This document shows, in pieces, positions 4,236 through 23,605 of a DNA stretch of 64,000 bases. Positions within the stretch are counted from its first letter, which is position 1; every line of letters begins with the position of its first letter. This DNA is from a bacterium (GTDB lineage Bacteria > UBA8248). The stretch is from the NCBI GenBank assembly GCA_965213625.1, contig CBDBZU010000004.1:3520001-3584000 (forward strand), given 5' to 3'. Below the pieces are notes generated by a model that was given only the letters and a program-made list of their open reading frames with translations, had not been told where the DNA came from and did not search any database. Made by a program: the position numbers and the translations under genes.

Positions 4236-5684
4236 GAGCTTCTTGCAAAAACCTCAAGGAGGATTGTGAGATATTGCGCAGGAGGCCAAGTGGGCTTGAG
4301 GAACGCAGCATGTGTTTGGAGAATTGGGCGTTTCGCGGTGAGCGGTAGGAGCGGAGGCCAGAGAACAGGCGAACCGGGTTCGTCCGGGCAGGCTTCATCG
4401 CGCCGCTCAGGCTATGTGACGGGATGCGAGGTCGTTCCATGGGGCCGGTGCGGGTTCAGAGCGTCAGGCGCATGAGCTGATCGAGGGTGAGGGCGAGGAC
4501 GCCGAACATCAGGTGGCAGAAGACCTTCTCATGGCCCCGCACGCGGACGTGGCGCCCGCCATAGGAATCCTTGATTCGGCTGTTCACACGTTCGACTGTG
4601 GAGCGTTCGTTGTAGCGCACTCTTCGGGGGTCGCTGTATCCGGCGCAGCGCCGGGCGCGAGCCTCCCTGGCACGTTCCTTCTTACGCTCCTTGTCCCGGT
4701 GGGTGTTGACGTCGATGATCGGAACATGACCTGAGAGGTAGCTGTGCCGGCCGATCTCTTTGCTGTCGCAGGCCGCATCCATCAGTTCATAGAGGTATGT
4801 CACCCGTTCCGTGCTCAGGGTCGCTAGGGGGATGGCCGCCTGGCTGTCATGCAAGGAGGCCGAGGTCAACAGGCAGCTGATGGGGACCCCGGAGTCGGCG
4901 GCGTCCACATGCAGCTTGTAACCCCTCCAGGTCTCAAGAAAACCCTTCGCGTTTTTCCTCACGCCAACCGTCGGGGCCGTCGGCAACTCATCCAGCATCG
5001 TGTCGCGGTCCATGCGCAACTGCCGCTGCAGCCGGCTCGGCCGTTTCGCCTTCTCGTCTTTGGGTTCGGGCTTCTCACGAGCGTCAATAGCGGTCGAATC
5101 GCGTGAGATGTGACCGACAATCGTCTCCTCAAACGCCGCCTTGACCACGGCCTCGTGCATCCGCTCGGGCAGCCTGCTCCGCGCGAACTCTCCAAAGGCG
5201 CGCGAAAACGTCGATTCGCTCGGTATCTCGCCCACACGCGACCAGCCACACAGACGCCGCAGCACAGGGTCACACGCGACGCGGTCCATCAAGTCCCGCG
5301 TGGTCGGAAAGTCCCATACGGCCTTGGCGATGAACGCGCGCGCCAGCGCCCCACGGTCTTCTGCCGGACGACCGCTCCCGCCGCTACGCACACCGACGAA
5401 GCCCTCCACCGCAACCACGTCGAGAACGGCTACCAGCCGCCTGTGCTTCGTTTGCAGTTCGCCGACCTCTTCGGCCAGCCTGGGAAACAATCCACCTTGA
5501 AACCGCTTCCAGATGTCGGTTAAACTCGATACCAAGGACATGGGGCGTTCCCTCCGCTTCAGGATGTTGTAGGGCTCATAACCACAACATAGCAGGGAAC
5601 GCCCCCTTGTCCACTTGAATCCCTCCAACCTTCACTCAACCTCGAAACTTATCCCCTGCTCCAATGGGGTTTTGCAAAAGGCCC
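4236..5684 (-). mobile_element. Insertion sequence, IS5/IS1182-like DDE type, copy 1 (1449 bp)
   Basis: Imperfect terminal IRs GAGCTTCTTGCAAAAAC / GGGCCTTTTGCAAAAC; near-identical inverted copy at 21041-25355. Confidence 0.9.
4456..5541 (-). CDS. DDE transposase (DUF772-like N-terminus + DDE_Tnp_1)
   Basis: Motifs PSESTFSR, RDSTAI, GYKLH, LHDSQ and RSTVERVNSRIK; ATG at 5541 follows a GGAGG RBS. Confidence 0.9.
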   Translation of the reverse strand: MSLVSSLTDIWKRFQGGLFPRLAEEVGELQTKHRRLVAVLDVVAVEGFVGVRSGGSGRPAEDRGALARAFIAKAVWDFPTTRDLMDRVACDPVLRRLCGWSRVGEIPSESTFSRAFGEFARSRLPERMHEAVVKAAFEETIVGHISRDSTAIDAREKPEPKDEKAKRPSRLQRQLRMDRDTMLDELPTAPTVGVRKNAKGFLETWRGYKLHVDAADSGVPISCLLTSASLHDSQAAIPLATLSTERVTYLYELMDAACDSKEIGRHSYLSGHVPIIDVNTHRDKERKKERAREARARRCAGYSDPRRVRYNERSTVERVNSRIKDSYGGRHVRVRGHEKVFCHLMFGVLALTLDQLMRLTL

Positions 5685-5741
5685 TATAGTAATATCAATA
5701 TTTTATATGCAAAAAATAATCTAAATTATGAACAAAATAAA

Positions 5742-5830: not shown

Positions 5831-6082
5831 ATGAGAAGCGGCGATGAAATGTTGAAGCAGATTGTAGATAAGTCCGCCCTGGACGCGGATTTCAGGCAAC
5901 AGTTGCTCGCAGACCCGAAGTCGACCATCAGTCAGGAATTGGGTATTACGATCCCCGATTCGATGAATATCATGGTCCATGAGAGCGACATGCAGACGGT
6001 GCATCTGGCGTTGCCCCCTGATCCGAATATCACCGAGGAGCAACTCGAAGCCATCTCGGCCGGTCTCTGCTGCTGCTGGTAA
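5831..6082 (+). CDS. srpE: NHLP-leader (proteusin) RiPP precursor, core LCCCW (SrpE-like)
   Basis: Nitrile-hydratase-like leader (DADFRQQLLADPK...VHLALPP) ends in the double-glycine-type site ITEEQLEAISAG, followed by core LCCCW. Confidence 0.92.
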   Translation: MRSGDEMLKQIVDKSALDADFRQQLLADPKSTISQELGITIPDSMNIMVHESDMQTVHLALPPDPNITEEQLEAISAGLCCCW

Positions 6083-6148
6083 ACCCGACAGCCCGAGATT
6101 AGCGGGGTCAAAGACGCGGAACAATTTGGACCCGCATAGTGCAAACAA

Positions 6149-6186
6149 AAACAACTCCTCGTCCCTACCGGGGCGAGGGTTTGTTT
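6149..6186. terminator. Bidirectional intrinsic terminator between convergent genes
   Basis: Hairpin AACAAC-TCCTCGTCCC-TACC-GGGGCGAGGG-TTTGTTT with A- and T-rich flanks. Confidence 0.6.
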
Positions 6187-6205
6187 ATGCCCGCTTGAGA
6201 CCGGA

Positions 6206-7324
6206 TTATGTGGAGACCGCTCCGGAAAGCACCATGTAAACATAGGCCTTGGCTTGCCTGAGCCGATTTCCGGAAATGACCAGTTTTATGTGGTGAATGC
6301 CGCGCAACATGAGAAACTGCCCGGTCCTGGCGAACAGAGTCGTCGGTTTCGAAACCCAATCGGCAAGCGCCTCAATCTTTTCCGGAACGACAAAGTCCTC
6401 ATGGCTCAGGGCGTCGAGAAAGGGGTCCCAATCGGTCAGGCCGTCGAGCCAGTAACGTGAATCTTTCGTATATCTCTGCTTGACGATGAGCGTCAGGCCG
6501 AGCGTCGGACCGACACCGTCCGCCTGCACGTCAACATTCGCTCCGGTTCTCACAATATCCGCGCGTTCCTTGAAGCGTGAAATCAAAGCGTCTACGGCCG
6601 AGAGCCGACCCGGCCAGCCAATGTTCTCGAGATAGGAACAAATATCCCCCTGTGATTTGAAGCCCATGATCGCCAGGCGGATTGTGCGTTCGCGAGAGGG
6701 GAATATCCCGAAAGAATCCAGGCGCGTGTCTTCCGGCTGCGCCAGGTAAACCCGTTCGGCGTTTTTCCGTTCAGCGGCTATCTTTTCCCAGCCGACGCAG
6801 GAAACGAGGGCGTCAACCACGACTCCGACATCGGTCTGGAGGCCGTCGCCACCGGATAACGTGCGTTCGTTGGGCCGCAGGAACATTCCCGGCAGCGAAT
6901 CTTTACTTCCCGGCGCCGAATCTATGTCATATTCCAGCATCAATTTACGTCCCACAATCTCTCGCAGAGGCGAGTCCTGGGCTTCCATTTCCCTGAACAG
7001 CCGCCTGACCGCTCTCGCAGTTTTATCCGCCTCGTCGGTCCGCGCCCGCTCCTCGAAAAAATCGCCTGACCGGTTTCCGCTCGCCAGCGAGACGCCGAAA
7101 TCCGCCGCCGGCCGACTGTCATGCAGAGGCAGTTCGAAGCCGAACGGCTGGGCGCCCATGGTAATGGGAAGTCGGCTCGCACGTTCCAGTATGCGCCCCC
7201 ACTCCCGCTCTCCGATAAGAGTCGGAGAAATTCTGCTTCGAAATTGCCCGAGCAATTCAGCCATGGTGCCGCCTTCTTGGACGAGGCGGTCCTGGGTAAG
7301 CGCGACTGCTTCGTCGATATCCAT
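6206..7324 (-). CDS. Uncharacterised RiPP-associated protein, candidate ABBA-type aromatic prenyltransferase
   Basis: 372 aa with a good RBS, last gene of the operon. Short strand-like motifs FGFE, LEYD, PGMFL and HHIKL..AKAYVY. The function is inferred. Confidence 0.55.
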   Translation of the reverse strand: MDIDEAVALTQDRLVQEGGTMAELLGQFRSRISPTLIGEREWGRILERASRLPITMGAQPFGFELPLHDSRPAADFGVSLASGNRSGDFFEERARTDEADKTARAVRRLFREMEAQDSPLREIVGRKLMLEYDIDSAPGSKDSLPGMFLRPNERTLSGGDGLQTDVGVVVDALVSCVGWEKIAAERKNAERVYLAQPEDTRLDSFGIFPSRERTIRLAIMGFKSQGDICSYLENIGWPGRLSAVDALISRFKERADIVRTGANVDVQADGVGPTLGLTLIVKQRYTKDSRYWLDGLTDWDPFLDALSHEDFVVPEKIEALADWVSKPTTLFARTGQFLMLRGIHHIKLVISGNRLRQAKAYVYMVLSGAVST

Positions 7325-7333
7325 ATTGCCTCC

Positions 7334-9688
7334 TTACGCGATCACGGGTGCGGGATTCAAATCGGCTTCGGCCAGGGAGCGCTTCAGGCGGCCCATGCCG
7401 ACAGGAACGTCGTACAGGCGCCCGGGCGCGAATCTTGGCCAAAAATGACGCATGCCCGGTACGATGACCCGCGCAACCGGCATACCGATGTCCGGCCGGG
7501 TCTGGTCCAGCACGAGGAACTCCATGCCCCTGGCTTCCACCAACGATCGGCAATGTTCCACATCCTCAAGCGTGTCCGCGGATTCGATCACCGGATACTG
7601 TGAGCCTTGCTTGAGCGGCGCGTCCGGCGCCGACGCCAGCCAGGAACAATCGGCGATTCGAGCTGTCTTCCACCACGTGAGCGCCAAGGGATCGTCGATC
7701 ATCGGCCGGCCGTCGCCCCTTCCGGGACGCGGCAGCCAGGTAAGACATTGGTTCAACTCGCAAATCGCGCGCAGGGCCGCCAGTCGCGGGTCGGCATGAG
7801 CGCCTGCGCCGTATATGATGTCCTCGGTTTCCGCGTCCGGTCTGCGCGAGAGCGCAACGAACGAAGGGATACCAATGTCGGAAGTAACGTCGAGCATCCA
7901 CACTTCCCGCTCGTAGCGACCATAATAATCCGCGGCCGATGCCAGGAATTCATCATCAAAACTGGAGAGATCGACCCCGGGCGCTCTCAGCCCGTTATAC
8001 CACCAGATGGCGAACGCATCGCGCTCGACCAGTTCATAGAAGCCTTGCAGGATGGCCTCCTCCAGGATGTTCCCTGCGGCGCAGCCGTTCGAGTCGGCAA
8101 TCAGTTCGGCATCTCCGCGCTGTTCGGCAGACATGCTGTAGAGCATCGACGTCGGCAGATAGCGATGCCGCCGCTGCGTGAACGACCACACGGGCGTCCA
8201 GTCGATTGCGGCATCGGGCTCGAGACGCGGCGGGACGATGTTGTACGGGTGGCCTTTCGCGTTGATCCTCTCCGCGTCGTCAAGCTGACCCTCGCTGAAA
8301 AGCTGCGCATCGTTGGGATGGATAGCCTCGTCTTCTGCGGCGAAGTCGACGAATCGCTTGCGGATGCGTATCTCGTCTCCGCAATATGCGCCCGAATAAC
8401 GCTCTAGCGCCTCGCATAGGGCGCTGGCCTCGGATTGTTCCCGCGTGCTGCCCTTGCCGGCGCTCTTGCTGCGCAGGCTGCGCCTGAGCGAACTCAGGCT
8501 CCGGCTTCTCGTGGCGGGATTGCTTCCGGCCCAATAGACGTGCAGCCAGGAATCGCTCTCGTCGGTAGTGCGCGTCAGCCAGGTGACGACCCCGCTGATC
8601 GGGCTCACCAAGTGGCGGTATTTCGTCAGGGTGGCTTCCGGCGTCACGGCCCGCGCACCACCGCTGTTGCGATGGGTTTTGGGACTCGATTTCAGGCGCA
8701 GCGGCGCAGGCTGCCGGTCCGGCCGGTACAACGCCTCGTCGCCACAGGCCGGGCACTGCGGGCGGCGCGTCACTGCGTGCTGCGAACTTGTGAACGAGCC
8801 GAGGTTCATCGCTATTGCCCTCTCGTGAATCGGGGCCGCCTCTTCCAGCACCAGCCATTTGACGATTTCGGCCGCTATCAGCCCGTACAAGGCTTCGAGC
8901 GCCGTCGGCTCCGCCGCAAACGGCTTGAAGGCGGCTTCCTCTCCGGCAACGCTACGCAGGAAATTGTGGACCTCCTTATGACTGCGCAGGCGGTGAACCA
9001 GACATTCCCAGCAGGGTCCTTGTCTATCCGCGCGGAAGACGGGGCCGAACAGCGCCTCCATGCCGTGCGGCCGCACCAGCGTCCACGGCGCTCTCGCCTC
9101 GAGGCGGCGCCGATTCACGTCTTCAAACCGTGCTTCGAGATAATCGTCGCAGACGATAACGGTGAGCCGTGGATCGCAGGCCGCCACACAGACGCCGCTC
9201 TCTTCCAGATGCCGGACGAGGCGGCCGTCGTCACCTTCGACCGCGATGCGCGATTCCGCCAGCCGCCCTTCGACCCAGCGGGGCGATGCGCCGAGCGAGG
9301 TCCAATAGGCCGCACGAGGTCGGTCCATGCCATGATCGGCGGAGACGACGTAGCCCCTGTCGGAGAGTGAAACAACCGCCGCATGAACGTTAGCGGCGGC
9401 ATGGCGGCCATCGAGGGCGGCGACAATCCCGGCAAGCGGGCGCCGGTCGCCCAGAAGCGGTAGCAGGTCGCAATACAGGCCGCCGTGCAGCAGGGTATCG
9501 AACGACTCGGAAACCAGCAGCGTCTGCTGCTCGTCAATTTCGTGGAACTGCAGGTGCGGGGTAAGCGCGGGGAACTCGACGAGGCCTTCGTCCGCTGGGG
9601 TCGTTTTCGTCAATATCCCGCGTCTTGGATTCATTTTCGTCTGCGACGTCTTGCGGGAATTCCGCGTCTGCTCAATCGGCGCCTTCAT
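7334..9688 (-). CDS. srpC: Fused E1-like/YcaO cyclodehydratase (TOMM type, SrpC-like)
   Basis: Zn sites GPCWECL and CPACG; YcaO motifs SAGKG, EALERYS, SNGCAAG and ELVERDA; Pro-rich C-terminus NPAPVIA. The likely start ATG 9688 overlaps the upstream stop (ATGA). Confidence 0.9.
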   Translation of the reverse strand: MKAPIEQTRNSRKTSQTKMNPRRGILTKTTPADEGLVEFPALTPHLQFHEIDEQQTLLVSESFDTLLHGGLYCDLLPLLGDRRPLAGIVAALDGRHAAANVHAAVVSLSDRGYVVSADHGMDRPRAAYWTSLGASPRWVEGRLAESRIAVEGDDGRLVRHLEESGVCVAACDPRLTVIVCDDYLEARFEDVNRRRLEARAPWTLVRPHGMEALFGPVFRADRQGPCWECLVHRLRSHKEVHNFLRSVAGEEAAFKPFAAEPTALEALYGLIAAEIVKWLVLEEAAPIHERAIAMNLGSFTSSQHAVTRRPQCPACGDEALYRPDRQPAPLRLKSSPKTHRNSGGARAVTPEATLTKYRHLVSPISGVVTWLTRTTDESDSWLHVYWAGSNPATRSRSLSSLRRSLRSKSAGKGSTREQSEASALCEALERYSGAYCGDEIRIRKRFVDFAAEDEAIHPNDAQLFSEGQLDDAERINAKGHPYNIVPPRLEPDAAIDWTPVWSFTQRRHRYLPTSMLYSMSAEQRGDAELIADSNGCAAGNILEEAILQGFYELVERDAFAIWWYNGLRAPGVDLSSFDDEFLASAADYYGRYEREVWMLDVTSDIGIPSFVALSRRPDAETEDIIYGAGAHADPRLAALRAICELNQCLTWLPRPGRGDGRPMIDDPLALTWWKTARIADCSWLASAPDAPLKQGSQYPVIESADTLEDVEHCRSLVEARGMEFLVLDQTRPDIGMPVARVIVPGMRHFWPRFAPGRLYDVPVGMGRLKRSLAEADLNPAPVIA

Positions 9689-12081
9689 GCACGCGAAACG
9701 AGCGTATCGATGCGGGCGGCGGCGCTGGATGCGGTTTCGGCGACCGCCGACGCCAGCGCATCGAAATCCTCCTGACCGCAAGCGTTCGCAACAAGAGATT
9801 TGACCTTCGGCCCTGCCGCCGTCGCGTCGAACCCTTCCTCGCCGACAAGGCGCATGACGCCCTGTAAATCCCGCCACATGGCCGCGGCTTGCGCCAGCGG
9901 CTCGGCGCCTGCGGCTTCGAACACCGCCGCGGCGGTCGGCGCCGGATCGTCGAAGTCGCTTCCGGCGCGCACCAACTGCAGGTAACGCGCGACCTTCTCG
10001 ACATCGTTCAGCCCGCCGCGCATCCGGGCGTATGCGGACACGCCTGTTTCGGCAGGGTCTTCCGTCCGCTCGCTCAACCGGGCGAGCAAAGACTCGTTCG
10101 CCCTGCATTCGGCCAGTACCCGGCGCCGCGCCTCATCGAAGCGACCTTCGATATCGGAACCGCCATACTCGAACACGCAACGCGCCCTGGTGAGGGCGGG
10201 CACTTCGCCTGAAGTCGAATCTCCATAATGTTCGGCCAGTTCGGAAAGCGGCAACTCAAGAATGGAATTCGAGCCGGGCGGGACCGGAGAGAACAACAGG
10301 CTGTCCTGCGCCAGGTCGGTCAGGGCATCTCGGAAACTTTGGCACACTTGTTCGTTTTTGCCGGACCGCAGACCGTCATGGACGAGCAGCATATCGATTC
10401 CAACACCGGGATAAGCTTCCCGGCTGGCCAGATCGCCCAGGAAAACGGCAGCGACTCCACCCACACTCAGCATTCCGAACCGGTCGACATAATCCGCGAC
10501 CACGGAGGCGAGCACGGTCGCAACCGATGCTTCGGCGAGATTCGACAGCGCCGTTCTCGCTTCCGCTGGCAACAGGTTTCCGCGCATCACGTGCATACCG
10601 ATCTGAAACGCCTTGTCGTTCGACCAGTTTCGCACGATTTCAGCGGTCTCCCTCGCATCGGCCACCGGCAGTTCGGCGACCAGACCCTTCAATTCCTGAA
10701 CGTCCATTTCGTAAGTCCAGTAGACTCTCGCAAGCCCGCGCCGCGCAATCGATTCGTATTCATCATCCGGCCCGAACCCCTTCGGCAGGTCGAGGTCGAG
10801 GAATTCCTGGTCTTGCAGGTTGTCCAGAAGTTCCGGGTTCCGCTCAACCCGTTTGGCAAGCCTCGGGGCGGCGCCGAAGATTTCGAGTATCGCGTCAAAG
10901 GCGTCGGGCCGCGCCGCGGCAATCGGGCTGTCGTAGGGGCCCCAGTCGTCAACCTCCGGATAGAAATGTTCGCGCCATTGGTCCACCAGCGGGTCCATCT
11001 TCTCGAACCAGCGCTTGGGCCGCAGCACGATGTTCATCATGTCGGCGTAGGTTCCCGGCAACTCCGGCGACTCATCGAGGCCGCTGACCTGCAGCAGCGG
11101 ATACTGGCGCGACGCCACCGCATGATGATCCGCATGGCGCTGCATATTGAAAAACATCCAGTTGCTGAACTTCCAGTCCGCGCTCCAGGAATGGCGCGGC
11201 ATCGCCTTTTCCCAGCGACCGTTGTCCAGACGGACCCGGCGCAGGCCGTAGTGTTGAAAGTAGTTGCTCATCTTCATCGAAAAGACGCAGGACAGACCGA
11301 GGAAGACGAAGACGGGAACGGCCCAGATCCCGCCCATCCAGTAAACCAGTCCGTACCAGAACGCGACGCCGACGACGTAGCGCCAGAACGGATTGTCGTA
11401 ATGCCACACGGGCAAACGCCGCCGCGCCAAGCGTTCTCTTGCGACTTCCCAGGAATGGACGAGGTTGCTGACAACTTCCTTGGGTAGATATCTCCAGAAA
11501 CTTTCCCCCTTCGGAGCGGACCCGACGTCATACGGCGTGCCGACCAGGGCATGGTGAATATAGACGTGCTCCGTGGCGTATTGCGGATAGGAGACGGTGG
11601 CGAGCAGGAATTCGCCCACCCGGCGTTCCCAGGTCGTGCGCCGGTGAATCATTTCGTGGCCGACTACGAATACGGCTTGCGCTTCCATCGTCAGGATGAT
11701 CGCCAGGAGCACGCCTTCCCAGATGGAGAATTGATCCGCCGCCAGGATTTGCCACATACCGAAAATGAGCGTCGGCGGCCACAGAAACGACCACGACCAG
11801 ACCGGCAGATTGTGCCAGAACAGGCGGTGCTCCGACGTATTCGCCGGGTCCATGTTTTGTCCGTCCCGACCCAGCACCTTATCAAGCGACCCCGCAACAC
11901 TCATAAAAACGAGCGGCGGCAGCAACCACCAGCCTCCATTGTACGCGCCGAGAAGAATCAGCGGAAAAACGACCAATGGCAGATAATGCGGAAGAGCGGT
12001 CAGAATGGACGGCTCGATACGCTGAACGGCTTCGGCGTCGCCTAGACCGGAGCCACCACTTGCTACGGGACTTTGTGGCAT
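9685..12081 (-). CDS. AlkB-type membrane di-iron monooxygenase/desaturase fused to a degenerate GlnE-like nucleotidyltransferase domain
   Basis: His boxes HEMIHR, EHVYIHH, NYFQHYGL and QRHADHH. The C-terminal half has GlnE-like ALSNLAEA, GDLASRE..GIDMLLVHD and GGLNDVE..YLQL. Confidence 0.8.
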   Translation of the reverse strand: MPQSPVASGGSGLGDAEAVQRIEPSILTALPHYLPLVVFPLILLGAYNGGWWLLPPLVFMSVAGSLDKVLGRDGQNMDPANTSEHRLFWHNLPVWSWSFLWPPTLIFGMWQILAADQFSIWEGVLLAIILTMEAQAVFVVGHEMIHRRTTWERRVGEFLLATVSYPQYATEHVYIHHALVGTPYDVGSAPKGESFWRYLPKEVVSNLVHSWEVARERLARRRLPVWHYDNPFWRYVVGVAFWYGLVYWMGGIWAVPVFVFLGLSCVFSMKMSNYFQHYGLRRVRLDNGRWEKAMPRHSWSADWKFSNWMFFNMQRHADHHAVASRQYPLLQVSGLDESPELPGTYADMMNIVLRPKRWFEKMDPLVDQWREHFYPEVDDWGPYDSPIAAARPDAFDAILEIFGAAPRLAKRVERNPELLDNLQDQEFLDLDLPKGFGPDDEYESIARRGLARVYWTYEMDVQELKGLVAELPVADARETAEIVRNWSNDKAFQIGMHVMRGNLLPAEARTALSNLAEASVATVLASVVADYVDRFGMLSVGGVAAVFLGDLASREAYPGVGIDMLLVHDGLRSGKNEQVCQSFRDALTDLAQDSLLFSPVPPGSNSILELPLSELAEHYGDSTSGEVPALTRARCVFEYGGSDIEGRFDEARRRVLAECRANESLLARLSERTEDPAETGVSAYARMRGGLNDVEKVARYLQLVRAGSDFDDPAPTAAAVFEAAGAEPLAQAAAMWRDLQGVMRLVGEEGFDATAAGPKVKSLVANACGQEDFDALASAVAETASSAAARIDTLVSRA

Positions 12082-12163
12082 GTCAGCTCCTTTACAGTAA
12101 ACAGATTTGAACCCTCAGGCCGGACGATATTTTATCCCCGAATACCTGAACCTGCAAGGAATT

Positions 12164-13465
12164 TCAGGTCCGCAAGATTGCGAGGAGACGTTCGAGAGCT
12201 TCGATACAAAACGCCGTGGTCACGGATTCTGAGCCATGTCCTATCCGCCCTACCGTACCCCACTTCAACGTTTGGTCGCCAAACGCGAGAAGCTCCGGCC
12301 AGCTACCGTCCTCACGCTGCGAACCCGTGAACCTCTCCACCTCGCGTTTCGCGTCGACGCCGTCGAGGCGTCCAACATGATGGAGCGCCGAGACGGCCTG
12401 AGCCGTTTGGAGGATGTTGCCGAATTCCCCTTCCTCGTCCCGCAAGCCCAGGATGCGCTCCGCTAGTATCGGGCGCAGCCGGTCGAGAGCGGGCCGTGCG
12501 CGAATCATGGCGCGGGCGGTCGCATAGCAGATCGCGACCTCGTCGGGATACCATTTCGACGATCCCTCGAGATTGCCTTCGGTTATCAAGGCTTCCAGCC
12601 ACCTTTGGGCATCCCTGGTTTCTGGACAGTCGCCGAGATAGGCAATGACGTTCGCATTGACTACAGGGTCGGCTTCGATACGAAAGCGCGATACCACATC
12701 GGGTTCGTCGTCTTCGAGAACCCAGGTCATGAAGCGGCCTTCCTCGTCGCGATTCGCCAGTATCTGCGGAACGTTCCTCCCCAGTAAAATCCAGAGGTGG
12801 CCTCCAATCACGAGTGAACACAGTGCGGTGCTGTCGAGATCCTGGGGCAGGTGGCGATAATAGCGCCACAATCCGGGATATTCGATAGTGTCGACGAGAT
12901 ACGCCCTTGTCGCAGCGCATATGGCCCTGGCGCGCGCTTCCTCGCAACATTCGAGAGCCAGGGCGCAGAAAGCCGAAATAAAGGGAGGTCTTTCGAAATG
13001 CCTCGGTATATCCGGATCGCCCAAGTTGAACCGGATACAATGCCAGGCTCCGTTCTCGTCTATCGTGGATTCCAGGAAACCAAGACCGCGGCGGATGCTT
13101 TCTCCACCCGCTTTCGCCAGCGCCCCGGTGGTCGCGGCGTTCTTCGGGGTTCTCTCCCCTTGAAGTTTTGGCGGACGAAGGGGCGGCGCGGGGTCGTGCA
13201 TCGTTTTGCGAAGAAACTCGAGCGATTCCGCGCCGGTTTTCGCCTCCTCCCGTTCGGCCTCGGTGAATTTGCTGCGCGGCGGAAGGACGAGGTGCGTCGT
13301 GGTATAGGTTTCTTCGTGTACGTGAATCTCATGGTCTTCGGCCATCGACACGCCAAATTCCGCTTCGATGGTCTCTTTGGGCTTGGCGAGAAGACGTTCC
13401 CGGAATTCGTAGTCGCCGCCAGCTCGCGATATGAGGGAATCAACCAGGCCAAAAGGCTTCTTCAT
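12164..13465 (-). CDS. NHLP-leader-like domain fused to a prenyltransferase/class II terpene cyclase-like alpha-barrel
   Basis: The first ~80 aa align by eye with the precursor leader. QW-like repeats GLGFLESTIDENGAW and GSQREDGSW, plus PQDLDSTA resembling DxDDTA. Confidence 0.8.
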   Translation of the reverse strand: MKKPFGLVDSLISRAGGDYEFRERLLAKPKETIEAEFGVSMAEDHEIHVHEETYTTTHLVLPPRSKFTEAEREEAKTGAESLEFLRKTMHDPAPPLRPPKLQGERTPKNAATTGALAKAGGESIRRGLGFLESTIDENGAWHCIRFNLGDPDIPRHFERPPFISAFCALALECCEEARARAICAATRAYLVDTIEYPGLWRYYRHLPQDLDSTALCSLVIGGHLWILLGRNVPQILANRDEEGRFMTWVLEDDEPDVVSRFRIEADPVVNANVIAYLGDCPETRDAQRWLEALITEGNLEGSSKWYPDEVAICYATARAMIRARPALDRLRPILAERILGLRDEEGEFGNILQTAQAVSALHHVGRLDGVDAKREVERFTGSQREDGSWPELLAFGDQTLKWGTVGRIGHGSESVTTAFCIEALERLLAILRT

Positions 13466-13540
13466 CGATATCTACTCCATATTCGCGGGCCTTGGCCGAA
13501 CATGCATTTTTTCCGCCGAGTTATCGTCTCCATATTCGGA

Positions 13541-16483
13541 TCAAGCGATTTGCCTTTTTATCAATTCCTTGAATACCCCGTCCACCTCCTTGAGTTCGCT
13601 GAAGGAACCGCTTTGTACGACTTTCCCGGCTTGCAGCACGTAGATGCGGTCGGCCTGTTCCAGCGTGGACAGGCGGTGGGCAATGACGAGGCGGGTGGAA
13701 GTCAGGGCGGCAAGGTTTTGCATTATCTTGGCCTGGCTTTCGTTATCCAGCCAGTTCGTCGCCTCGTCCAGCAACATGATTCGCGGGCTGCCGATCACCG
13801 AGCGGGCGATGGTGATGCGCTGGCTCTCGCCGCCCGACAGGACAGACCCGCTGGTGCCCACCATGGTCATCATGCCCATGGGCATGTCCTTGATTTGGGC
13901 TTCAACTTCGGCGGTACGGACCGCCGACCATACTTCATCGATCGTCACCGCATCATGGTGACTGACCAGATTGTCCCAGAGATCCTGTGGATGGAGCCCG
14001 ACGGATTGCGGCACAGCGCCAATTTTCTTGCGCACCTGTTTCAGATTCAGGTGCTTCAGGTCGCGGCCGTCGTAATACACCGCGCCGGCGGCCGGCAAGT
14101 CGATACCGAGCGCGAGGCGGAACAGGGTGCTCTTCCCTGCGCCGGACTCACCGGCAATCGCGACGAATTCGCCGGGACGGGCGTGAATCGAGACGTCGTC
14201 GAGAATCAACGGACCGTCGGGATCGTAGCGGAATGAAATGCGGTCGAACAGTATTTCACCGCCCAGGTATTCAACCGGCTCTCCTTCCGTCACGGTTTCA
14301 GGGACTGCGGAGAGCAGCGGACGCATCTGCTGGAACGCCGGACGCATGGCGGCAATTGCGCCGAAGGACTCGCCGAGCCGGGCGATGGCGGACTGGAAAA
14401 CGATAAAGACCGTGTAAACGACGAGAAAATCGCCGACCGGAATGTTTCGGTCTTCGACCGCCACCACCGAAAAAAGCAGCACCCCGCCGGCAAGAAAAGG
14501 GAGCGCGGCGCCGAATGCGCGCGAATGTCCCTCGAGCGCGCCCAGTTCTATCTCCGCGCGCTTCTGCTCACGATAGCCCCTCGCCCAGATGGCGTAAGCC
14601 GACCCTTCCGCATTATCCATTCGCAGCTTGGAGATGCCCCCCACGATCTGGAACAGTCGGCCGGCTACGCGACGCGCTGCGCTGAGCATCCGCCCATAAG
14701 GTGAAATCTGGCGCCACCCGAGGACTACGGTGACCAGCAGGGAAGCCAGGCTGAAGACGAGGGTGATGACGCCGAGGATGGCGTCGTACAAAAAAATGAC
14801 GCCAAAAACCGGAATCAGAAATATAATCGACAGAAAGCTGTTGGCGACGACTCCCTGCAAGCCATCGCGAAGATTCTGGAATGTCATTCCCGACATGGCC
14901 AGGTCGCCGGATGGATGGCGGTGCAGAATGCTTGGCGGAAGGCGCATGAGACGGTCCCAGAAGGCGGCTTCGAGCCGAGATGCCGAGCGCCCCTCGAGCC
15001 GCATCATCGCCGTGCTTTGAAGCAGGTGCAGCAGCGCGCCGAGAAGGCCGAACGCCGCTAACGCCACGGCAACGGTATAGAGCGTTCCTATGCTTCCGCC
15101 CGCCAATATCTGATTCGCAACGAACCCGAGCGCGAGCGCCGGCAGCAGATTGAGCAGACCGTATGGAAGCCCGGAAATCACCAGCCGCGCCAAATCCGAA
15201 GCCGACCCGTTCAGCGCGATTCCCAGCAGGTCCGCCGGTTTCACGTCCCTCGAGGGCAATGGCCGATAGAACATCCACGCCTTCTCCCCCAGCGCATCCG
15301 CGCGGTCCGCCGTTACCCGGACACTGCGTTTGCTGACCGGGTCGATTTCACGGTATCGCCCGAACATTCCCGGCAGCAGCGCCACGGGCCGGCCGTCCTC
15401 GGCGCGAAACGCCAACATCGCGTTGCTGTCGCCGCGCCACCAGCCGCCCTCGGCATTGAATCGCACACGCCGGGCGCGTACGCCCGACGCATCGAGAACC
15501 TCGACGAGGCCGACCGGAGAACCGGAAAGCCCCGAGCGCGCCGGTATCTTGAAATCGATTCCTTCATGGCGGCCGATGTGTTGCAAGGCATCCGCCAGCG
15601 CCGTGTCCTCGATACCGGCATCCCGGTCAATCGGAAGGTCATAGATATTGAAGAGCCGCTGCCGCGCGGCTTTTTCGGCCGTGCGGCGGCTGGTTGTCCG
15701 CGCGCGTTCGAGATTGACGTCATCGACCACGACCAGTCGGCGGTTCAGGCGTTCCAGGGAGAAAGCAACCGCGTGAAACGAGGCGAGCGCCGGCAGCAGC
15801 ATACCTTCCTCCGCCAGTGTCTCGGTAGATTTGCCCGTCAGCGTCGCCTCGTCGAACAAGGTGAGCCAGCTTGTGCGCGTCAGCGGAACGAGAGCCTCGT
15901 GTGAGCCGCTCGCCTCCGCAATTTCCGCCGAGTCGATAATACCCATGAACAGGCTCGCGCCGAGCGGCGGTTCGGATACCCATACAACACCGCGCCGTAC
16001 GGATAGCGTACATGGAGCCGGGGTCTGCGTCAGACCGGGTTCGGCCAGCGCGGTCGGACGCGGAAGGGGGCTTGCAAAACGCGAGAGTGTTTCCGTAATG
16101 GCGATCAGCCAGGTATCGGCCTGTTCCGCCAATTCCGATGGGTGAACCTGGGACAGCAAAGAAGCCGGCAGACGTCTCAATTTGGTGCCCGGCAGTCCTT
16201 TGGCGATAATACGGAGCGTATTGTCCTCGCCATTGTCCCGTTGGTCCGGCGCCACGCCCGGCAGCAACCAGCCCGATTCCCGGCGCAGCAGATGCTGCGG
16301 CGCCGCCTGCTCCACCCCGTCTTTGAATTCGACCAGGAACAGATTAACGGCGCCCTGTTCGATGAACCAGACGCTGTCCGGGTCGTCGAGCTTGGCCGGC
16401 AGGTTGCCGGCGCAGGGAACGGACGCGCCGAAGCGAGCGGCGAGTTCGGCGATTGACGTGTATTCCGGCTTTGAATGCTGCAT
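13541..16483 (-). CDS. NHLM bacteriocin-system ABC transporter (permease/ATP-binding)
   Basis: cNMP-like N-terminus, transmembrane domain, GESGAGKST, LSGGESQR and LLDEAT. Confidence 0.9.
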   Translation of the reverse strand: MQHSKPEYTSIAELAARFGASVPCAGNLPAKLDDPDSVWFIEQGAVNLFLVEFKDGVEQAAPQHLLRRESGWLLPGVAPDQRDNGEDNTLRIIAKGLPGTKLRRLPASLLSQVHPSELAEQADTWLIAITETLSRFASPLPRPTALAEPGLTQTPAPCTLSVRRGVVWVSEPPLGASLFMGIIDSAEIAEASGSHEALVPLTRTSWLTLFDEATLTGKSTETLAEEGMLLPALASFHAVAFSLERLNRRLVVVDDVNLERARTTSRRTAEKAARQRLFNIYDLPIDRDAGIEDTALADALQHIGRHEGIDFKIPARSGLSGSPVGLVEVLDASGVRARRVRFNAEGGWWRGDSNAMLAFRAEDGRPVALLPGMFGRYREIDPVSKRSVRVTADRADALGEKAWMFYRPLPSRDVKPADLLGIALNGSASDLARLVISGLPYGLLNLLPALALGFVANQILAGGSIGTLYTVAVALAAFGLLGALLHLLQSTAMMRLEGRSASRLEAAFWDRLMRLPPSILHRHPSGDLAMSGMTFQNLRDGLQGVVANSFLSIIFLIPVFGVIFLYDAILGVITLVFSLASLLVTVVLGWRQISPYGRMLSAARRVAGRLFQIVGGISKLRMDNAEGSAYAIWARGYREQKRAEIELGALEGHSRAFGAALPFLAGGVLLFSVVAVEDRNIPVGDFLVVYTVFIVFQSAIARLGESFGAIAAMRPAFQQMRPLLSAVPETVTEGEPVEYLGGEILFDRISFRYDPDGPLILDDVSIHARPGEFVAIAGESGAGKSTLFRLALGIDLPAAGAVYYDGRDLKHLNLKQVRKKIGAVPQSVGLHPQDLWDNLVSHHDAVTIDEVWSAVRTAEVEAQIKDMPMGMMTMVGTSGSVLSGGESQRITIARSVIGSPRIMLLDEATNWLDNESQAKIMQNLAALTSTRLVIAHRLSTLEQADRIYVLQAGKVVQSGSFSELKEVDGVFKELIKRQIA

Positions 16484-18693
16484 CAGCCCGACATGACTTG
16501 CTTGTAATAGGCGCCATCCCGATCCGCGAACAACTCGTCGTGCGTGCCGCGTTGCACCGTGACGCCCTTGTCGAGCACGATGATTTCATCGCAATCCCGC
16601 ACGGTGCTCAGCCGGTGCGCCACGATCAGGCAGGTGACGCCGCGACGCCGCAGGGCGTCATCGACATCTTCTTCCGTTGCCGCATCGAGTGCGCTGGTGG
16701 CCTCGTCCAGAATGAGCACCGTCGGATTGCCCACCAACGCACGGGCGATTTCCAGACGTTGCCGCTGGCCGCCGCTGAAATTCGCCCCGCCTTCTTCGAC
16801 GAGGGTCGAATATCCCTGTGCTCTATGCAGGATTTCGTCATGGATCCGGGCATCTCGCGTTGCGGCGAAGAGGACCTCATCCGGAACGGCCGGGTTCCAC
16901 AGCGTGATATTGTCGCGCAGGGACGCAGAGAAGAGCACGACCTCCTGATCCACCATGGATATGGACTGCCGCAGCACTTCCTCCGGAATCTGATTCCGCA
17001 GGTGTCCATCGAAAAGGATTTCGCCCGACCAGGGCTGGTAGACGCCCGAAACCAGGCGCGCCAGGGTCGACTTGCCGGAACCGCTTGGACCGACCACGGC
17101 GACGCGCTGCCCCGGATTGATCACGAGGTTGAAGTCCCTTATCAAAGGAGGCCTGCTTTTGTTGAAACCGAATGTGACGTCTCGCAGTTCGAGCTGGCCT
17201 GCAAGCTGGAGCCGGCCGTTGAACGTGGGGATTGACTCCGATTCCGGGTTCCTGCGGCTGAAGACGGGATCCTCATCGGTGCTGGAGATGTCCTCGAATC
17301 GCTGCATATCGGTTTCGAGCGCCTGACGGGTTTCGGCGAATTCCAAAAAACGCCGGATGGGAGCCAGAAACATCTCCGCCAGGATATAGAACCCGACCAG
17401 CGTCCCCAGCGTCATGTCTCCGGTCATGACGAAACCGCCCCCGATGCCGAGAATCGCCGCGCTTCGGAGCGCGTCGATCAGACCCGGAAGCGAGGTATTG
17501 ACGGAGCCCAGTTCGGAGTAGAGTTGGCGCGCACGCAGTTCACGCGCCTGTTGACCGCTCCAGCGCGAAAAAAACCGGTCATCCGCACCCGTCATACGCA
17601 GATTGTCCGCATGACTCAACATCTGCATGCCGAGGCCAATCAGCAATCCCTGTTCACGCCTCATCGCCTGACTGCGCACCGCCCGTAGGGCGTTGAGAAA
17701 GTGGGCCAGCACTCCGTGCAGCAGGGCCAGAAAAAGCACGATCAGCGTGAGCAGGATATCGTAGGCGAACATCGCTACGAGCAACACCGCGCTCATCGCC
17801 ATATCGATAATGAGCACAAGAAACTGATCCGCCAGATTCCTGGCGATTCTGTCGGTGGACGAGACCCTATCGGTCAGATCCCCCGCCAGCCTGTGCTCAA
17901 AAAACTCCACCGGCAACCGCAGCAGCCGTGACATGCCGCGACTGTAGCCGACCACCGATACCCGGACTGCGAGCCGCTTGAGGAAGCGGTGCTTGAGCAA
18001 GGACAGGACGTATACCAGGACGCCGCCGCCAAGCAAGGCAATCACCAACCCGCCCCAGGACCCGTGTTTTTCCAGAACATCGTCGACGAAAACACCGAGA
18101 GATACGGGAATTATCAGCGTCAACAACGTTAACATGAGTCCGCAGGCGATCACCCCGGTAAGCAAACTCCATGATCCGGGGAGCAAGGCGCCCAATTGCC
18201 TGAACAAGTCGGGCCGCTCGCCCCCGGGACTGAAATCGGCGCCGCGCTTGAAGCGAAGCGCAATTCCGCTGTAGTCCTTGTTGAACTCTTCGGCGGAAAT
18301 CCTGCGCCGGCCCGTGGATGGGTCGTTGAGATAGAAATAACGGCCATCGAAACCTTCGAGGACGACGAAATGGCTGAATTGCCAGAACAAAATCAAAGGC
18401 AACTCCAGCATTTTCAGTTGATCGGCGAGTAAGCTGAACCCGCTGCATTCGAGACCATAGTGTCTCGAGGCGCGCAAGATGCTTGCGGCGCTGCTGCCGT
18501 CCCGGCTCACCTCGCATTTTTCGCGCAATTCGGTAAGCGACACCCACCGCCCGAAATAGGCCAGTATGATGCCGAGACAGGCGGCGCCACATTCCGACGC
18601 ATGCATCTGCAACAGAATCGGCGTGGTCACCTTCCGTTTCGATACGTCCGAAGAGGCCTTGTCCCCGGCGTCTTTGGAAGCGGCCGTCGGCAT
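16483..18693 (-). CDS. NHLM C39 peptidase-containing ABC transporter (leader cleavage and export)
   Basis: C39 catalytic residues in QMHASECGAACL, FSHFVV and YLNDP; Walker A GPSGSGKST; signature FSGGQRQR. Confidence 0.92.
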   Translation of the reverse strand: MPTAASKDAGDKASSDVSKRKVTTPILLQMHASECGAACLGIILAYFGRWVSLTELREKCEVSRDGSSAASILRASRHYGLECSGFSLLADQLKMLELPLILFWQFSHFVVLEGFDGRYFYLNDPSTGRRRISAEEFNKDYSGIALRFKRGADFSPGGERPDLFRQLGALLPGSWSLLTGVIACGLMLTLLTLIIPVSLGVFVDDVLEKHGSWGGLVIALLGGGVLVYVLSLLKHRFLKRLAVRVSVVGYSRGMSRLLRLPVEFFEHRLAGDLTDRVSSTDRIARNLADQFLVLIIDMAMSAVLLVAMFAYDILLTLIVLFLALLHGVLAHFLNALRAVRSQAMRREQGLLIGLGMQMLSHADNLRMTGADDRFFSRWSGQQARELRARQLYSELGSVNTSLPGLIDALRSAAILGIGGGFVMTGDMTLGTLVGFYILAEMFLAPIRRFLEFAETRQALETDMQRFEDISSTDEDPVFSRRNPESESIPTFNGRLQLAGQLELRDVTFGFNKSRPPLIRDFNLVINPGQRVAVVGPSGSGKSTLARLVSGVYQPWSGEILFDGHLRNQIPEEVLRQSISMVDQEVVLFSASLRDNITLWNPAVPDEVLFAATRDARIHDEILHRAQGYSTLVEEGGANFSGGQRQRLEIARALVGNPTVLILDEATSALDAATEEDVDDALRRRGVTCLIVAHRLSTVRDCDEIIVLDKGVTVQRGTHDELFADRDGAYYKQVMSG

Positions 18694-18694
18694 C

Positions 18695-19246
18695 TTATGA
18701 TCGCCTCATTCGAAACAGCGCGATCGGAGATTGCCTGCCAAGCTCGAAGACAATCCGGCATTTCCCGCCCGCCAGGGAATTCAAATCCATACCTTCTTCG
18801 AGCGCGATATCGATGCGGCGCACGGACATCGGCGCCTTGGACTCAAGCGCCGCCAGCCCCCCGGAGAAGGGCACGGCGGAAATCGCCCTGACCTTTCCGA
18901 CAAGCGCGCCTGTTTTTCCATCGGCCGCATGCGGCTCGATCACCACCGGCATCCCGGCCTCGATATGTGAAGCGATATCGCTCTCGACCCAGACGAGGGC
19001 CCGTACGGACCGGCCGCCCCCGATCGGGTTTTCGCCTTGCTCGACCACTACGCCGTCCACCGCGAAACTACGAGCGACGCTGCCGAAGAAAAGCCATACC
19101 GAGAGGATGCACACCAAGAGAGCGATTGCGGCGACAATCAGACGCTCCCGAGGCGTTGAAATCGTCAGCAACCGGTCAAGTTGCTCGCGTTCTTCCTTTG
19201 CTTCGGCGACAATATTATGAAAAGAATCGAATGGATTATTGAACAC
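18695..19246 (-). CDS. Short NHLM secretion (HlyD-like) accessory protein
   Basis: EQLDRLLTISTPR, one transmembrane helix, GKVRAIS and C-terminal SPIALF. At 183 aa it seems to lack the usual coiled-coil hairpin. Confidence 0.7.
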   Translation of the reverse strand: MFNNPFDSFHNIVAEAKEEREQLDRLLTISTPRERLIVAAIALLVCILSVWLFFGSVARSFAVDGVVVEQGENPIGGGRSVRALVWVESDIASHIEAGMPVVIEPHAADGKTGALVGKVRAISAVPFSGGLAALESKAPMSVRRIDIALEEGMDLNSLAGGKCRIVFELGRQSPIALFRMRRS

Positions 19247-19664
19247 GACGGCAGGGCAACCCTCTCTTTGTAATCAAGCAAGGTAAAAAAACATCATACC
19301 ATCCGGTAAAAAGAAATGTAATTCTACACAATACGGCTCAAGAATCGTCGGCGTTTGGGAAGCAGTGGATTTCCGATGGGCGGAACAGGCCGTTCGTTTA
19401 CTCGTTTTCGGAATCAGTTACTCCGGGGAGCCGGCCACGAACCGCCCGCGCCTCTCGCGCCGCAACATTTCTCGAGGTCGCCCTCACGGCGACTGACATA
19501 CAAAATCACAGGGCGGGGACATTTTCAAATGCCTTCAATAGACGCCCTGCGCAGCAGGCAGACGATTTTCTCCGGTTTGCAGACCTTCCCCGTTATCATC
19601 GGTCCAGCATTTGCAAACCGGGGGGAATCGATCCTACGGCGCGGAATCAACCTTCGTTGAAATT

Positions 19665-20954
19665 TTACGAACCCGGCGCCTGACAGCCCAGCCCCTGGGA
19701 CATCTGGGCGTAACTGGTGAGCGGAAGCGCGCACATCCGCTCCCAGTCCGATTTGTCGATGACCGTCTGGTTTATCAGTTCGAGCATTTCGTCGAATTTA
19801 CGAAGCGCGTCGCAACCCACCACATCGGGGTCCGCCGCCTTGCGGTGTCGAGGCCAGGCTTTGTCTCTCGCATGGCGCCAGAATCTGCTGTCGTACCTGG
19901 AGCCGCAGGAATAGTGCCAACCGACGAACAGGCTGTAGCACAGCACGTTGTTGATGAGGAACCGATTGACCGCCGGCGCGTCGCGCTCGCGGTGTTCTAT
20001 CGGCCGGTTGAGACGCATATAGAGAACCGTCCCGACCTGCAACTGGGCGGACACGATCGCCGTTGCTTCGAGCGGCTCGATGAAGCTTGCCGCGTTGCCG
20101 ACGCGGGCCACCACGCCATCGTATATCCGGCGGTGGACGAAATTGGGAAACGGAATGACGGCGCGTTGCTCGAATTCCGATACGCCGTCGGTTTCGAGGA
20201 AAGCGTCGAAGTCCGATTCCACTTCCTCGAGGCCGGAAATGTCGCGGTTGAAGATGTACCCGTAGGAGGTATGTGATGCAAGCGGAATAACGAATATCCA
20301 ACCGTACGGACGCGCAACCGCCCGGGTATAGGTGTGTTGGAGAACCAGCCCGTCCCGCTCTTCTTCGACGGTTGCCGGACAGCGGCGGATGACGGCCGTA
20401 TTGGTGGGGATGAAGGAAACATCGATGTGCATTTCGGGGTCGAGTTCTGCGGGAAAGCCCCGGGCATCAAAGACCAAATCGTAGCGCTCCGCCGGCAGGC
20501 CCTCGAATTCCACTCGCGCGCCATCCTCCACCCTCGTGATACTAGTTACTTTCGCGTCGATGCGGCGCGCGCGGTTGCTTTCGCGAAGCAGGTCCGTGAG
20601 CAAGTCGACGGACAGATGGTAGGCATAGGACACCTGCTGCGGCGTGAAATAGTGGGTGAAGTCCTGATTGTGCCGGCCCCATCCCTCGAATGCGACACCA
20701 TACTTGCGCGTTCCTTTCAGGCGCCGCTGGACGGTTTCATGGGGCAAACGGGTCAGTTTGCGCAAATCCTGCACGAGGCTCGGCCAACTGCCTTCGCCCA
20801 CGCCGATGACGGGAATGCGCGAGTCATAGATGTGGTGCAGCTCGTGGTCGCTCTCGGGTAGAAGACGAGTCACATTGGCGGCCGCAAGGGACCCTGCGGT
20901 TCCTTGCCCGAGGACCGCGATTTTCCGTAAAGATTCTGCGCCCGGCTGTATCAT
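19665..20954 (-). CDS. srpI: Flavin-dependent tryptophan halogenase (peptidyl-Trp brominase, SrpI-like)
   Basis: GQGTAG, IGVGEGS, catalytic Lys in GTRKYGV, GWIFVIP (WxWxIP variant) and FIEPLEATA. Confidence 0.88.
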   Translation of the reverse strand: MIQPGAESLRKIAVLGQGTAGSLAAANVTRLLPESDHELHHIYDSRIPVIGVGEGSWPSLVQDLRKLTRLPHETVQRRLKGTRKYGVAFEGWGRHNQDFTHYFTPQQVSYAYHLSVDLLTDLLRESNRARRIDAKVTSITRVEDGARVEFEGLPAERYDLVFDARGFPAELDPEMHIDVSFIPTNTAVIRRCPATVEEERDGLVLQHTYTRAVARPYGWIFVIPLASHTSYGYIFNRDISGLEEVESDFDAFLETDGVSEFEQRAVIPFPNFVHRRIYDGVVARVGNAASFIEPLEATAIVSAQLQVGTVLYMRLNRPIEHRERDAPAVNRFLINNVLCYSLFVGWHYSCGSRYDSRFWRHARDKAWPRHRKAADPDVVGCDALRKFDEMLELINQTVIDKSDWERMCALPLTSYAQMSQGLGCQAPGS

Positions 20955-22101: not shown

Positions 22102-23043
22102 TTATGCCACCAAGTCATCATACCGGAGCCTCTTGCCGTGCATCCCAGATACGATGGACTCCATTTGCTCGATTGTGTCCATTGGTCGGATATTGTGTCG
22201 CCCTGCAAACTCGTTCACGTAACGTTCAAGATGCTTCTTGCTCATCTTGTGGAATGTTCCATTTTGAGCGCGCTTGAGCATGGCCCAGAAGCTCTCCACG
22301 CCGTTCGTATGCGCTTGCTTCCGCACGTATTCGCCTACGCTATGCTTCACGGCTTCATGGTCGTATCCGGCCATGTTTTCGTATGAGGAATGATCGTCGG
22401 TATACACCTTGGCCCCTTCCTTCACGTTGCTTTGGATGAAACCCTGCAAGGTCTCCCTGTCAGTCGATTCCACCACCTTGGCCTTGATGTGGTTTGTTTC
22501 CCGATCTTTTACGCCAGCGACAATCGCCTTGTCAACGGTTCCACGACCCTTGAGGTTAACCCGCTTTGACTTTCGCATGTTCTTGCGCTTTCCGCCAAAG
22601 TAGGACTCGTCCGCTTCCACGGGACCATCAAACTGCCCGCCGTTATCTCTCCACGTTTCCCTAATGCGGTGCATCATGAACCATGCGGTCTTTTGCGTTA
22701 CGCCCAAATCCCGATGCAACTTCATGCTTGAGACGCCCTTGAGATTCGTAGATGAAAGGTAGAACGCGATAGCCCACTTTTGCAAGGAAATCTTTGAGCC
22801 TTCCATGAGGGTGCCAGTCTTTATCGAGAAGTCCTTGCGGCAATCGCGGCAACGATAAGGCTGGGGCTTGCGTGTCTTTCTCTCTTGAATGTTCAGACCC
22901 CCACACTCAGGGCAACACACGCCGACGGGCCAGCGCGCCTTGATGAACCATGCCTCAGCCGACTTCTCATCGGGAAACATCTGGATGATCTCTATAAGTG
23001 AAATGCCCTTCCGGTATGCCTTGCCTGGTGCCTTGTGAGCCAT
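22102..23043 (-). CDS. IS1595-family transposase
   Basis: Zn ribbon CPEC/CRDC, KGVSSMKLHRDLG, VEADESYFGG, VYTDD, HTNGVESFW and YVNEF. Confidence 0.95.
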   Translation of the reverse strand: MAHKAPGKAYRKGISLIEIIQMFPDEKSAEAWFIKARWPVGVCCPECGGLNIQERKTRKPQPYRCRDCRKDFSIKTGTLMEGSKISLQKWAIAFYLSSTNLKGVSSMKLHRDLGVTQKTAWFMMHRIRETWRDNGGQFDGPVEADESYFGGKRKNMRKSKRVNLKGRGTVDKAIVAGVKDRETNHIKAKVVESTDRETLQGFIQSNVKEGAKVYTDDHSSYENMAGYDHEAVKHSVGEYVRKQAHTNGVESFWAMLKRAQNGTFHKMSKKHLERYVNEFAGRHNIRPMDTIEQMESIVSGMHGKRLRYDDLVA

Positions 23044-23600: not shown

Positions 23601-23605
23601 TTTAA

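Follow-up and report, generated by a model that had tools for sequence, protein, structure and literature searches.

The srp (sponge-derived RiPP proteusin) clusters, with SrpE, SrpC and SrpI as their named components, are reportedly due to Nguyen et al. (JACS, 2021), RiPPs being peptides made on the ribosome and then modified after translation. The SrpE core is described as LCCCW, of which SrpC turns the three cysteines into thiazolines while SrpI adds bromine to the tryptophan at the C-terminus (PMC10858898, PMC10286304), with Lys84 as the catalytic residue of SrpI (PMC10858898). A review further describes NctPC, an alpha-beta-beta-alpha (ABBA) prenyltransferase fused to an MstE-like cyclase, which geranylgeranylates a RiPP tryptophan and cyclises the chain (PMC13290415), and ChrPC, which performs the same chemistry through a different kind of prenyltransferase fold (Hubrich et al., Chem 2024, via PMC13290415). 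Here we analyze a 64,000-nucleotide stretch of bacterial DNA (the window; GTDB lineage Bacteria, UBA8248; assembly GCA_965213625.1, contig CBDBZU010000004.1, positions 3,520,001 to 3,584,000 of the forward strand), whose positions 5831-20954 are, by their gene content, a complete copy of the published srp cluster. On balance, we favor the reading that three extra genes in this cluster form a split prenyltransferase/cyclase/oxidase tailoring line. More tentatively, we propose that the mature srp product may be a brominated tris-thiazoline pentapeptide bearing a cyclised, hydroxylated sesqui- or diterpenoid, made by a prenyltransferase and a cyclase encoded separately, with the cyclase docking through a built-in copy of the leader.

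The cluster comprises nine genes, with the precursor on the forward strand and the other eight on the reverse strand:

5831-6082, forward: SrpE-type NHLP (proteusin) precursor, 83 amino acids (aa), core LCCCW (translation; TIGR03793)
6206-7324, reverse: predicted ABBA-fold prenyltransferase of an unnamed family, 372 aa (AlphaFold2 model with Foldseek; Atlas neighbors with Trp_DMAT)
7334-9658, reverse: SrpC-type fused E1-like/RRE and YcaO cyclodehydratase (Pfam YcaO, TIGR03882, TIGR03604, LynD, TruD)
9685-12081, reverse: AlkB-type membrane di-iron hydroxylase with a degenerate GlnE-like region, 798 aa (8f6t, 8sbb, 3k7d)
12164-13465, reverse: NHLP leader-like domain with a class II terpene-cyclase-like alpha/alpha toroid, 433 aa (TIGR03793 below cut-off; profile against PDB)
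13541-16483, reverse: NHLP-system ABC permease/ATPase lacking a peptidase domain (TIGR03797, 1.9e-199)
16483-18693, reverse: C39 peptidase-ABC exporter, PCAT (Peptidase_C39, 7.4e-34; TIGR03796, 3e-254)
18695-19246, reverse: mini-HlyD-like adaptor, 183 aa (TIGR03794, 3.2e-9, profile positions 6-56 only)
19665-20954, reverse: SrpI-type flavin-dependent tryptophan halogenase with Lys84 (Pfam Trp_halogenase)

An earlier reading of these letters without database searches (the sequence-only reading) had named an NHLP precursor with core LCCCW, a YcaO cyclodehydratase, a tryptophan halogenase, a C39/ABC export trio and three further enzymes (6206-7324, 9685-12081 and 12164-13465), and all of them were recovered in translations and open reading frames at or near the places it had assigned to them.

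The case for calling this region srp rests on several of its proteins. The precursor ends in NITEEQLEAISAG followed by LCCCW (C-terminal residues NITEEQLEAISAGLCCCW in the translation), scores 69.8 bits against TIGR03793 leader_NHLP (cut-off 50.9), and carries the leader motif ITEEQL where the published SrpE leader reads LTEEQL; according to the Waterworth preprint, ITEEQL is the consensus across 191 sponge precursors with high transcription. The YcaO protein matches the Pfam YcaO model (2.1e-90) together with TIGR03882 and TIGR03604, and it also matches LynD (4e-163) and TruD (2e-155). Its reading frame is open across 7334-10108, with the true start most likely at 9658, because this start yields 774 aa compared with 775 in LynD and because the frame upstream of it overlaps the 3' end of the neighboring gene. 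The halogenase matches Pfam Trp_halogenase (8e-44) and tryptophan halogenase structures down to 9e-25, and its residue 84, counted in the translation, is a lysine. Of the export trio (C39-ABC, second ABC, and mini-HlyD), the adaptor matches TIGR03794 over just its initial ~50 positions, and this short form is conserved, recurring in 28 of the 80 related loci described below. Searches with Pfam and NCBIfam models gave no match to an FMN azoline oxidase among the cluster proteins, and TIGR03605 (SagB), which gave matches in 9 of 14 control genomes, had none anywhere in this genome, 96.6% complete. The absence that the sequence-only reading had noted for the cluster thus extends to the genome. 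We identify the region as srp because the LCCCW core, the LynD-type YcaO protein, the K84 halogenase and the ITEEQL leader all agree, so that the likeness to srp clusters proposed in the sequence-only reading is borne out by the searches. Precursor core, leader motif, YcaO protein, Lys84 halogenase and exporter are common to this region and the described srp clusters, and relatives of both lie in bacteria labeled as many phyla; with no structural difference between them, the region is best regarded as a member of the group.

Next, we turned to the three extra genes, beginning with the 372-aa protein that lies between precursor and YcaO gene. Neither Pfam nor NCBIfam models match this protein, and the profile of its family, when searched against PDB sequences, returned a single match (E 0.84) to an unrelated chemotaxis protein and no meaningful structure. 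The family itself is sizeable, with at least 694 representatives at E ≤ 1e-3 in a 50%-clustered library. Structure prediction with AlphaFold2 reached a predicted local distance difference test score (pLDDT) of only 33 on the lone sequence; a usable model was obtained only with a 93-sequence alignment, giving a pLDDT of 95.6, a predicted template-modeling score (pTM) of 0.93 and a repeated helix-strand-strand-helix pattern. Foldseek comparison of this model with the PDB produced 61 matches at E ≤ 1e-3, and all among the matches listed are ABBA aromatic prenyltransferases (EpzP, NphB/Orf2, AmbP1, AmbP3, FamD1, CloQ, several DMATS, IptA and FunA). The Atlas language-model search points the same way, with 9 neighbor clusters that carry Trp_DMAT at ≥0.9, and with PTase_Orf2 as well. 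The family, at 25-59% identity, conserves charged and aromatic residues, those that are near-invariant being E64, D75, D133, R211, R216, K316, H345, K347, K359 and Y361. Residues of such kinds line ABBA barrels, and the basic ones and the tyrosine (R211, R216, K316, K347, K359 and Y361) are candidates for a role toward the diphosphate. Taken as a model-based assignment, these results support an ABBA aromatic prenyltransferase fold for the 372-aa protein and back the prenyltransferase-like guess of the sequence-only reading. The protein would thus have its fold in common with the enzymes above, but it belongs to a family of its own, at 8-13% identity to them and without a Pfam or PDB sequence match.

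The family is also found with other peptides. Elsewhere in this genome (C4:1399021-1400716), a paralogue of 365 aa and 31% identity sits beside another NHLP precursor (core SQTMLDFANAWNSLNQNS) without a YcaO gene, suggesting that the 372-aa family is tied to NHLP peptides in general. Scanning metagenomes with this paralogue yielded 4 loci. Two metagenome relatives of the paralogue locus (L088 and L089) keep the gene pair, with precursor cores SGSMLDLASAWNSLNQNS and SGSMLDLANAWNSLNQNS; because these cores keep most other residues besides their single tryptophan, the comparison does not fix the acceptor residue. A second paralogue of the prenyltransferase-like gene, 50% identical and ~9 kb from the first, was also observed in one related locus (L060:399-1661).

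The 433-aa protein combines a leader-like domain (residues ~6-78) with an alpha/alpha toroid (~115-433). In source annotations, proteins of this type are 'hypothetical' or 'nitrile hydratase subunit alpha'. A profile built from 20 toroid sequences matched, within the PDB, the bacterial drimenol synthase 9mhs (1.6e-6) and its sister entry 9m7d (9.4e-6), followed by the monodomain 365-aa cyclase 8paj (4.9e-4) and squalene-hopene cyclase (~4e-3); MstE was not matched by this profile in the PDB search at E ≤ 10. In the profile alignments, the invariant family motif LPxDLDST pairs with FPDDLDTT in 9mhs and with PADADST in 8paj, so that a DxD(S/T)T motif is aligned across all three, and 9m7d carries an asparagine at the second aspartate of the 9mhs motif. 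All 20 aligned sequences share D209, L210, D211 and S212. DxDTT is the variant of the class II acid motif found in drimenyl and drimenol synthases. The alignment of DLDST with DLDTT of 9mhs therefore supports the presence of a class II terpene-cyclase motif in the toroid protein, as the earlier cyclase-like guess implied, and Atlas neighbors are further evidence for the assignment of this 433-aa protein. The toroid protein differs from drimenol synthase 9mhs in lacking a HAD domain and in having an NHLP domain at its N-terminus instead.

This N-terminal domain scores 44 bits against TIGR03793, under the cut-off, and its residues 6-78 match NHLP leaders, nitrile hydratase alpha chains, and the MprE7 leader chimera 8tb1. 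Many of its positions are invariant, and the domain is under selection. An arginine (Arg72), itself invariant, takes the place of the second leucine of the L(X)4L motif (position -7), and position -2, just ahead of the invariant Gly78, varies between T, K, R, A and D. Because the domain is altered exactly where leaders are read, we read it as a docking domain and not as a cleaved leader, a reading that draws on the alignment of family members. An 811-aa protein from one metagenome contig (P0272) was considered as a Rosetta-stone fusion and rejected, as it does not match the 372-aa protein significantly. Over residues 394-809 it shares 74% identity with the NHLP-cyclase, starting at cyclase residue 16, and its N-terminal part gives short weak alignments to the N-terminal half of YcaO; it is probably a deletion product within an srp cluster.

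The third protein, encoded at 9685-12081, matches AlkB-type structures over residues ~50-370 (8f6t, 4e-47; 8sbb, 6e-36; FA_desaturase/AlkB). The histidines of all three His boxes are invariant in 43 of 43 sequences, as is every position except the variable third of the NY(F)QHYGL (NYxxHYGL) motif, so that the AlkB-like guess of the sequence-only reading holds. Its C-terminal region (~397-796) resembles GlnE (3k7d) weakly (0.003). At the GlnE-type aspartate pair, the first position is G, A, P, S, E or R and never aspartate, and only 33 of 43 sequences have D or E at the second; because the nucleotidyltransferase pair is not kept, this region is probably not a transferase. The protein therefore has the His boxes and NYxxHYGL motif in common with AlkB alkane 1-monooxygenase, and differs from it by the fused, degenerate GlnE-like region and by a genome in which no rubredoxin was matched. 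Rubredoxin is the usual electron donor of AlkB enzymes. The genome encodes two identical AlkB-type fusions even though it has no rubredoxin match.

We then asked how faithfully these genes accompany the precursor. Scanning one genome per species gave 251 confirmed precursor relatives, of which 80 were kept; gene presence was counted at ≥80% coverage, and 49 of the 80 loci have full 10-kb flanks, with many of the others reaching contig ends. In 80 of 80 kept loci the precursor is 87-95% identical with core LCCCW, a recurrence that argues against a chance open reading frame. All 80 relatives are metagenome-assembled genomes, which by their record titles come from Alpha- and Gammaproteobacteria, Chloroflexota, Acidobacteriota, Gemmatimonadota, Nitrospinota, Binatia and others. 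The usual gene order is precursor, 372-aa gene, YcaO, AlkB fusion, NHLP-toroid and ABC, and the individual genes were present as follows:

372-aa gene: 66 of 80 loci, 44 of 49 fully flanked
YcaO: 55 of 80 loci, 40 of 49 fully flanked
AlkB fusion: 44 of 80 loci, 34 of 49 fully flanked
NHLP-toroid: 58 of 80 loci, 46 of 49 fully flanked
Halogenase: 36 of 80 loci, 24 of 49 fully flanked

The three extra genes are thus core parts of the cluster. They are present in most homologous clusters, the opposite of the outcome that the sequence-only reading had named as refuting it, and the 372-aa and toroid genes are at least as faithful to the precursor as YcaO. Both of these genes occur without YcaO within 10 kb in 4 of the 49 fully flanked loci.

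Read together, these assignments suggest a maturation route. The 372-aa ABBA-fold protein would move a prenyl chain of at least C10 from a prenyl diphosphate onto the peptide, where the tryptophan indole is the most likely acceptor, by precedent only. The NHLP-fused cyclase, docked through its leader-like domain, would protonate the distal double bond, with D211 of DLDST as the acid, and cyclise the chain, after which the AlkB domain may hydroxylate the lipid part at a methyl or methylene group. Cleavage after ...SAG and export would then fall to the C39-ABC pair, giving a product whose rings would remain thiazolines because no azoline oxidase is found. By analogy, srp maturation would follow the NctPC/ChrPC type in split form, since a prenyltransferase is paired with a class II cyclase in each. 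Compared by description only, it differs from those systems in using two separate genes (6206-7324 and 12164-13465), in the fusion of its cyclase to an NHLP leader-like domain, and in the addition of AlkB, YcaO and a brominase. The sequence-only reading had looked for a prenyl mass shift with the proteins of both these genes; this expectation stands for the 6206-7324 protein, which alone should give such a shift, and has to be dropped for the 12164-13465 protein. A class II cyclase isomerises its substrate without changing the mass, so an absent mass shift with the latter protein would refute nothing.

Several points weigh against this proposal. The roles of the three proteins are drawn from sequence and predicted fold. 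For the prenyltransferase, 0 of 93 family members reach any prenyltransferase Pfam model, and for Trp_DMAT and PTase_Orf2 this holds at E ≤ 1; the Foldseek matches have TM-scores of 0.36-0.56 at the low identities given above, which matters as the call rests on a predicted fold. A predicted complex of the 372-aa protein with the precursor (score 0.28, mark 0.32) can be listed here too, yet is evidence neither way. The toroid domain reaches 19.3 bits against Pfam SQHop_cyclase_C (cut-off 26.1), and searching either family alignment against longer proteins found no fused prenyltransferase-cyclase relatives; eight longer representatives of the 372-aa family have no extra Pfam domain. The AlkB gene is not within 10 kb in 15 of the 49 fully flanked loci, and rubredoxin (PF00301) has 0 matches in the genome. 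The cluster contains no prenyl diphosphate synthase, and the two in the genome are far from it among housekeeping genes. Finally, the srp papers, as far as covered, describe only thiazolines and bromine (PMC10858898, PMC10286304).

These points leave room for other explanations, of which the one that fares best, although we consider it unlikely, holds that the ABBA-fold and NHLP-toroid proteins are non-catalytic scaffolds that bind the leader or the YcaO protein and aid cyclodehydration, the product being only a brominated tris-thiazoline pentapeptide. SrpC alone is poorly active in E. coli, where SrpE is partially modified (PMC10286304), and both the leader-like domain of the toroid protein and the usual position of the 372-aa gene next to YcaO would suit such helpers. 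A scaffold, however, sits poorly with a class II catalytic motif that is invariant in all 20 sequences and with charged and aromatic residues kept across so divergent a prenyltransferase-like family, and helpers of cyclodehydration would not be expected in the four loci that keep both genes without a nearby YcaO gene, nor beside the NHLP precursor with which the paralogue pairs in a locus lacking YcaO.

Quite unlikely, in our view, is that the three enzymes serve to make or modify a small lipid distinct from the peptide, such as a meroterpenoid or a self-protective membrane lipid, and are merely co-located and co-transferred with the peptide genes. Small molecules are the usual substrates of ABBA prenyltransferases and class II cyclases, and AlkB acts on alkanes, but a small-lipid pathway would leave unexplained why the cyclase carries a fused, leader-like NHLP domain, why the genes lie between precursor and exporter in a fixed order in bacteria labeled as many phyla, and why a paralogue of the prenyltransferase is found with a second NHLP precursor. 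It is very unlikely that the C39-ABC exporter has the NHLP-toroid protein as a cargo of its own, with the leader-like domain as a secretion signal and the enzyme acting on the released peptide outside the cytoplasm, since despite an invariant Gly78 where the precursor has its cleavage-site glycine, and a dedicated NHLP exporter encoded next door, the positions read by C39 and RRE are changed (Arg72 at -7 and a variable -2), and a folded cargo of 350 aa is unusual for such exporters.

Beyond the cluster itself, the window shows how it is set in the genome. Two inverted copies of one insertion sequence (IS) bracket the whole srp cluster:

4236-5688, reverse: IS copy A, DDE transposase open reading frame at 4456-5628 (Pfam DDE_Tnp_1 and DUF772; inverted repeats)
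23922-25355, forward: IS copy B, transposase split between frames (tblastn; inverted repeats)

The inverted repeats pair 4236-5286 with 24305-25355 (98%) and 5299-5688 with 23922-24311 (97%), and the copy B transposase aligns with that of copy A in tblastn pieces of aa 1-110 and 113-390 at 96-97% identity. This bracketing pair looks like a composite transposon, and it may bear on the spread of the cluster across phyla. Inside the bracket, a gene with a SocA/Panacea antitoxin domain (1.9e-16) and then a 102-aa open reading frame without a family occupy 23163-23914; they are a possible toxin-antitoxin pair and adjoin an IS1595 transposase (22102-23043).

The same genome holds further srp material. 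An 8.7-kb segment of the window (6211-14914) recurs at C4:1524947-1533650 with 99.97% identity, as part of a second, partial srp copy (C4:1524947-1534045; L094, L095) that contains the genes for the prenyltransferase-like, YcaO, AlkB-fusion and NHLP-cyclase proteins along with the second ABC gene's 3' half, and lacks a halogenase and a C39-ABC gene. The precursor of this copy is 88% identical to that of the window and has the core LSCCW, with a Mutator-family transposase adjacent. A polyprenyl synthase 8.8 kb from this copy was considered as a cluster part and rejected, as it sits among housekeeping genes. Two identical stand-alone LCCCW precursors, 92% identical to that of the window, lie far from srp enzyme genes at C4:21465-21716 and C4:4117548-4117799, each near a short repeat that is also found at window positions 25930-26457.

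The srp cluster was already known, and what may be new here is the terpenoid reading of its accessory genes. A 2025 survey still lists these as 'several genes of unknown function' (PMC11832590). Among papers containing LCCCW, the portions covered by our search linked no prenyl, terpene or hydroxylase to srp; the 2021 srp description, Hubrich 2024 and supplements lay outside this search, and a prior annotation there is possible. The srp literature covered likewise holds no description of a mature product. According to the Waterworth preprint, sponge symbionts labeled as belonging to many phyla share srp clusters, whose precursors rank with the most strongly transcribed biosynthetic genes there. 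Against this background, the prenyl/cyclase/hydroxylase reading supplies a concrete mass and isotope signature for sponge extracts, and it may explain the poor behavior of SrpC and SrpE alone in E. coli. If it is true, RiPP enzymology would gain a leader-domain-fused cyclase and an AlkB enzyme, and a peptide cluster that ranks among the most widely shared and most highly transcribed in sponge microbiomes would make a peptide-terpenoid hybrid.

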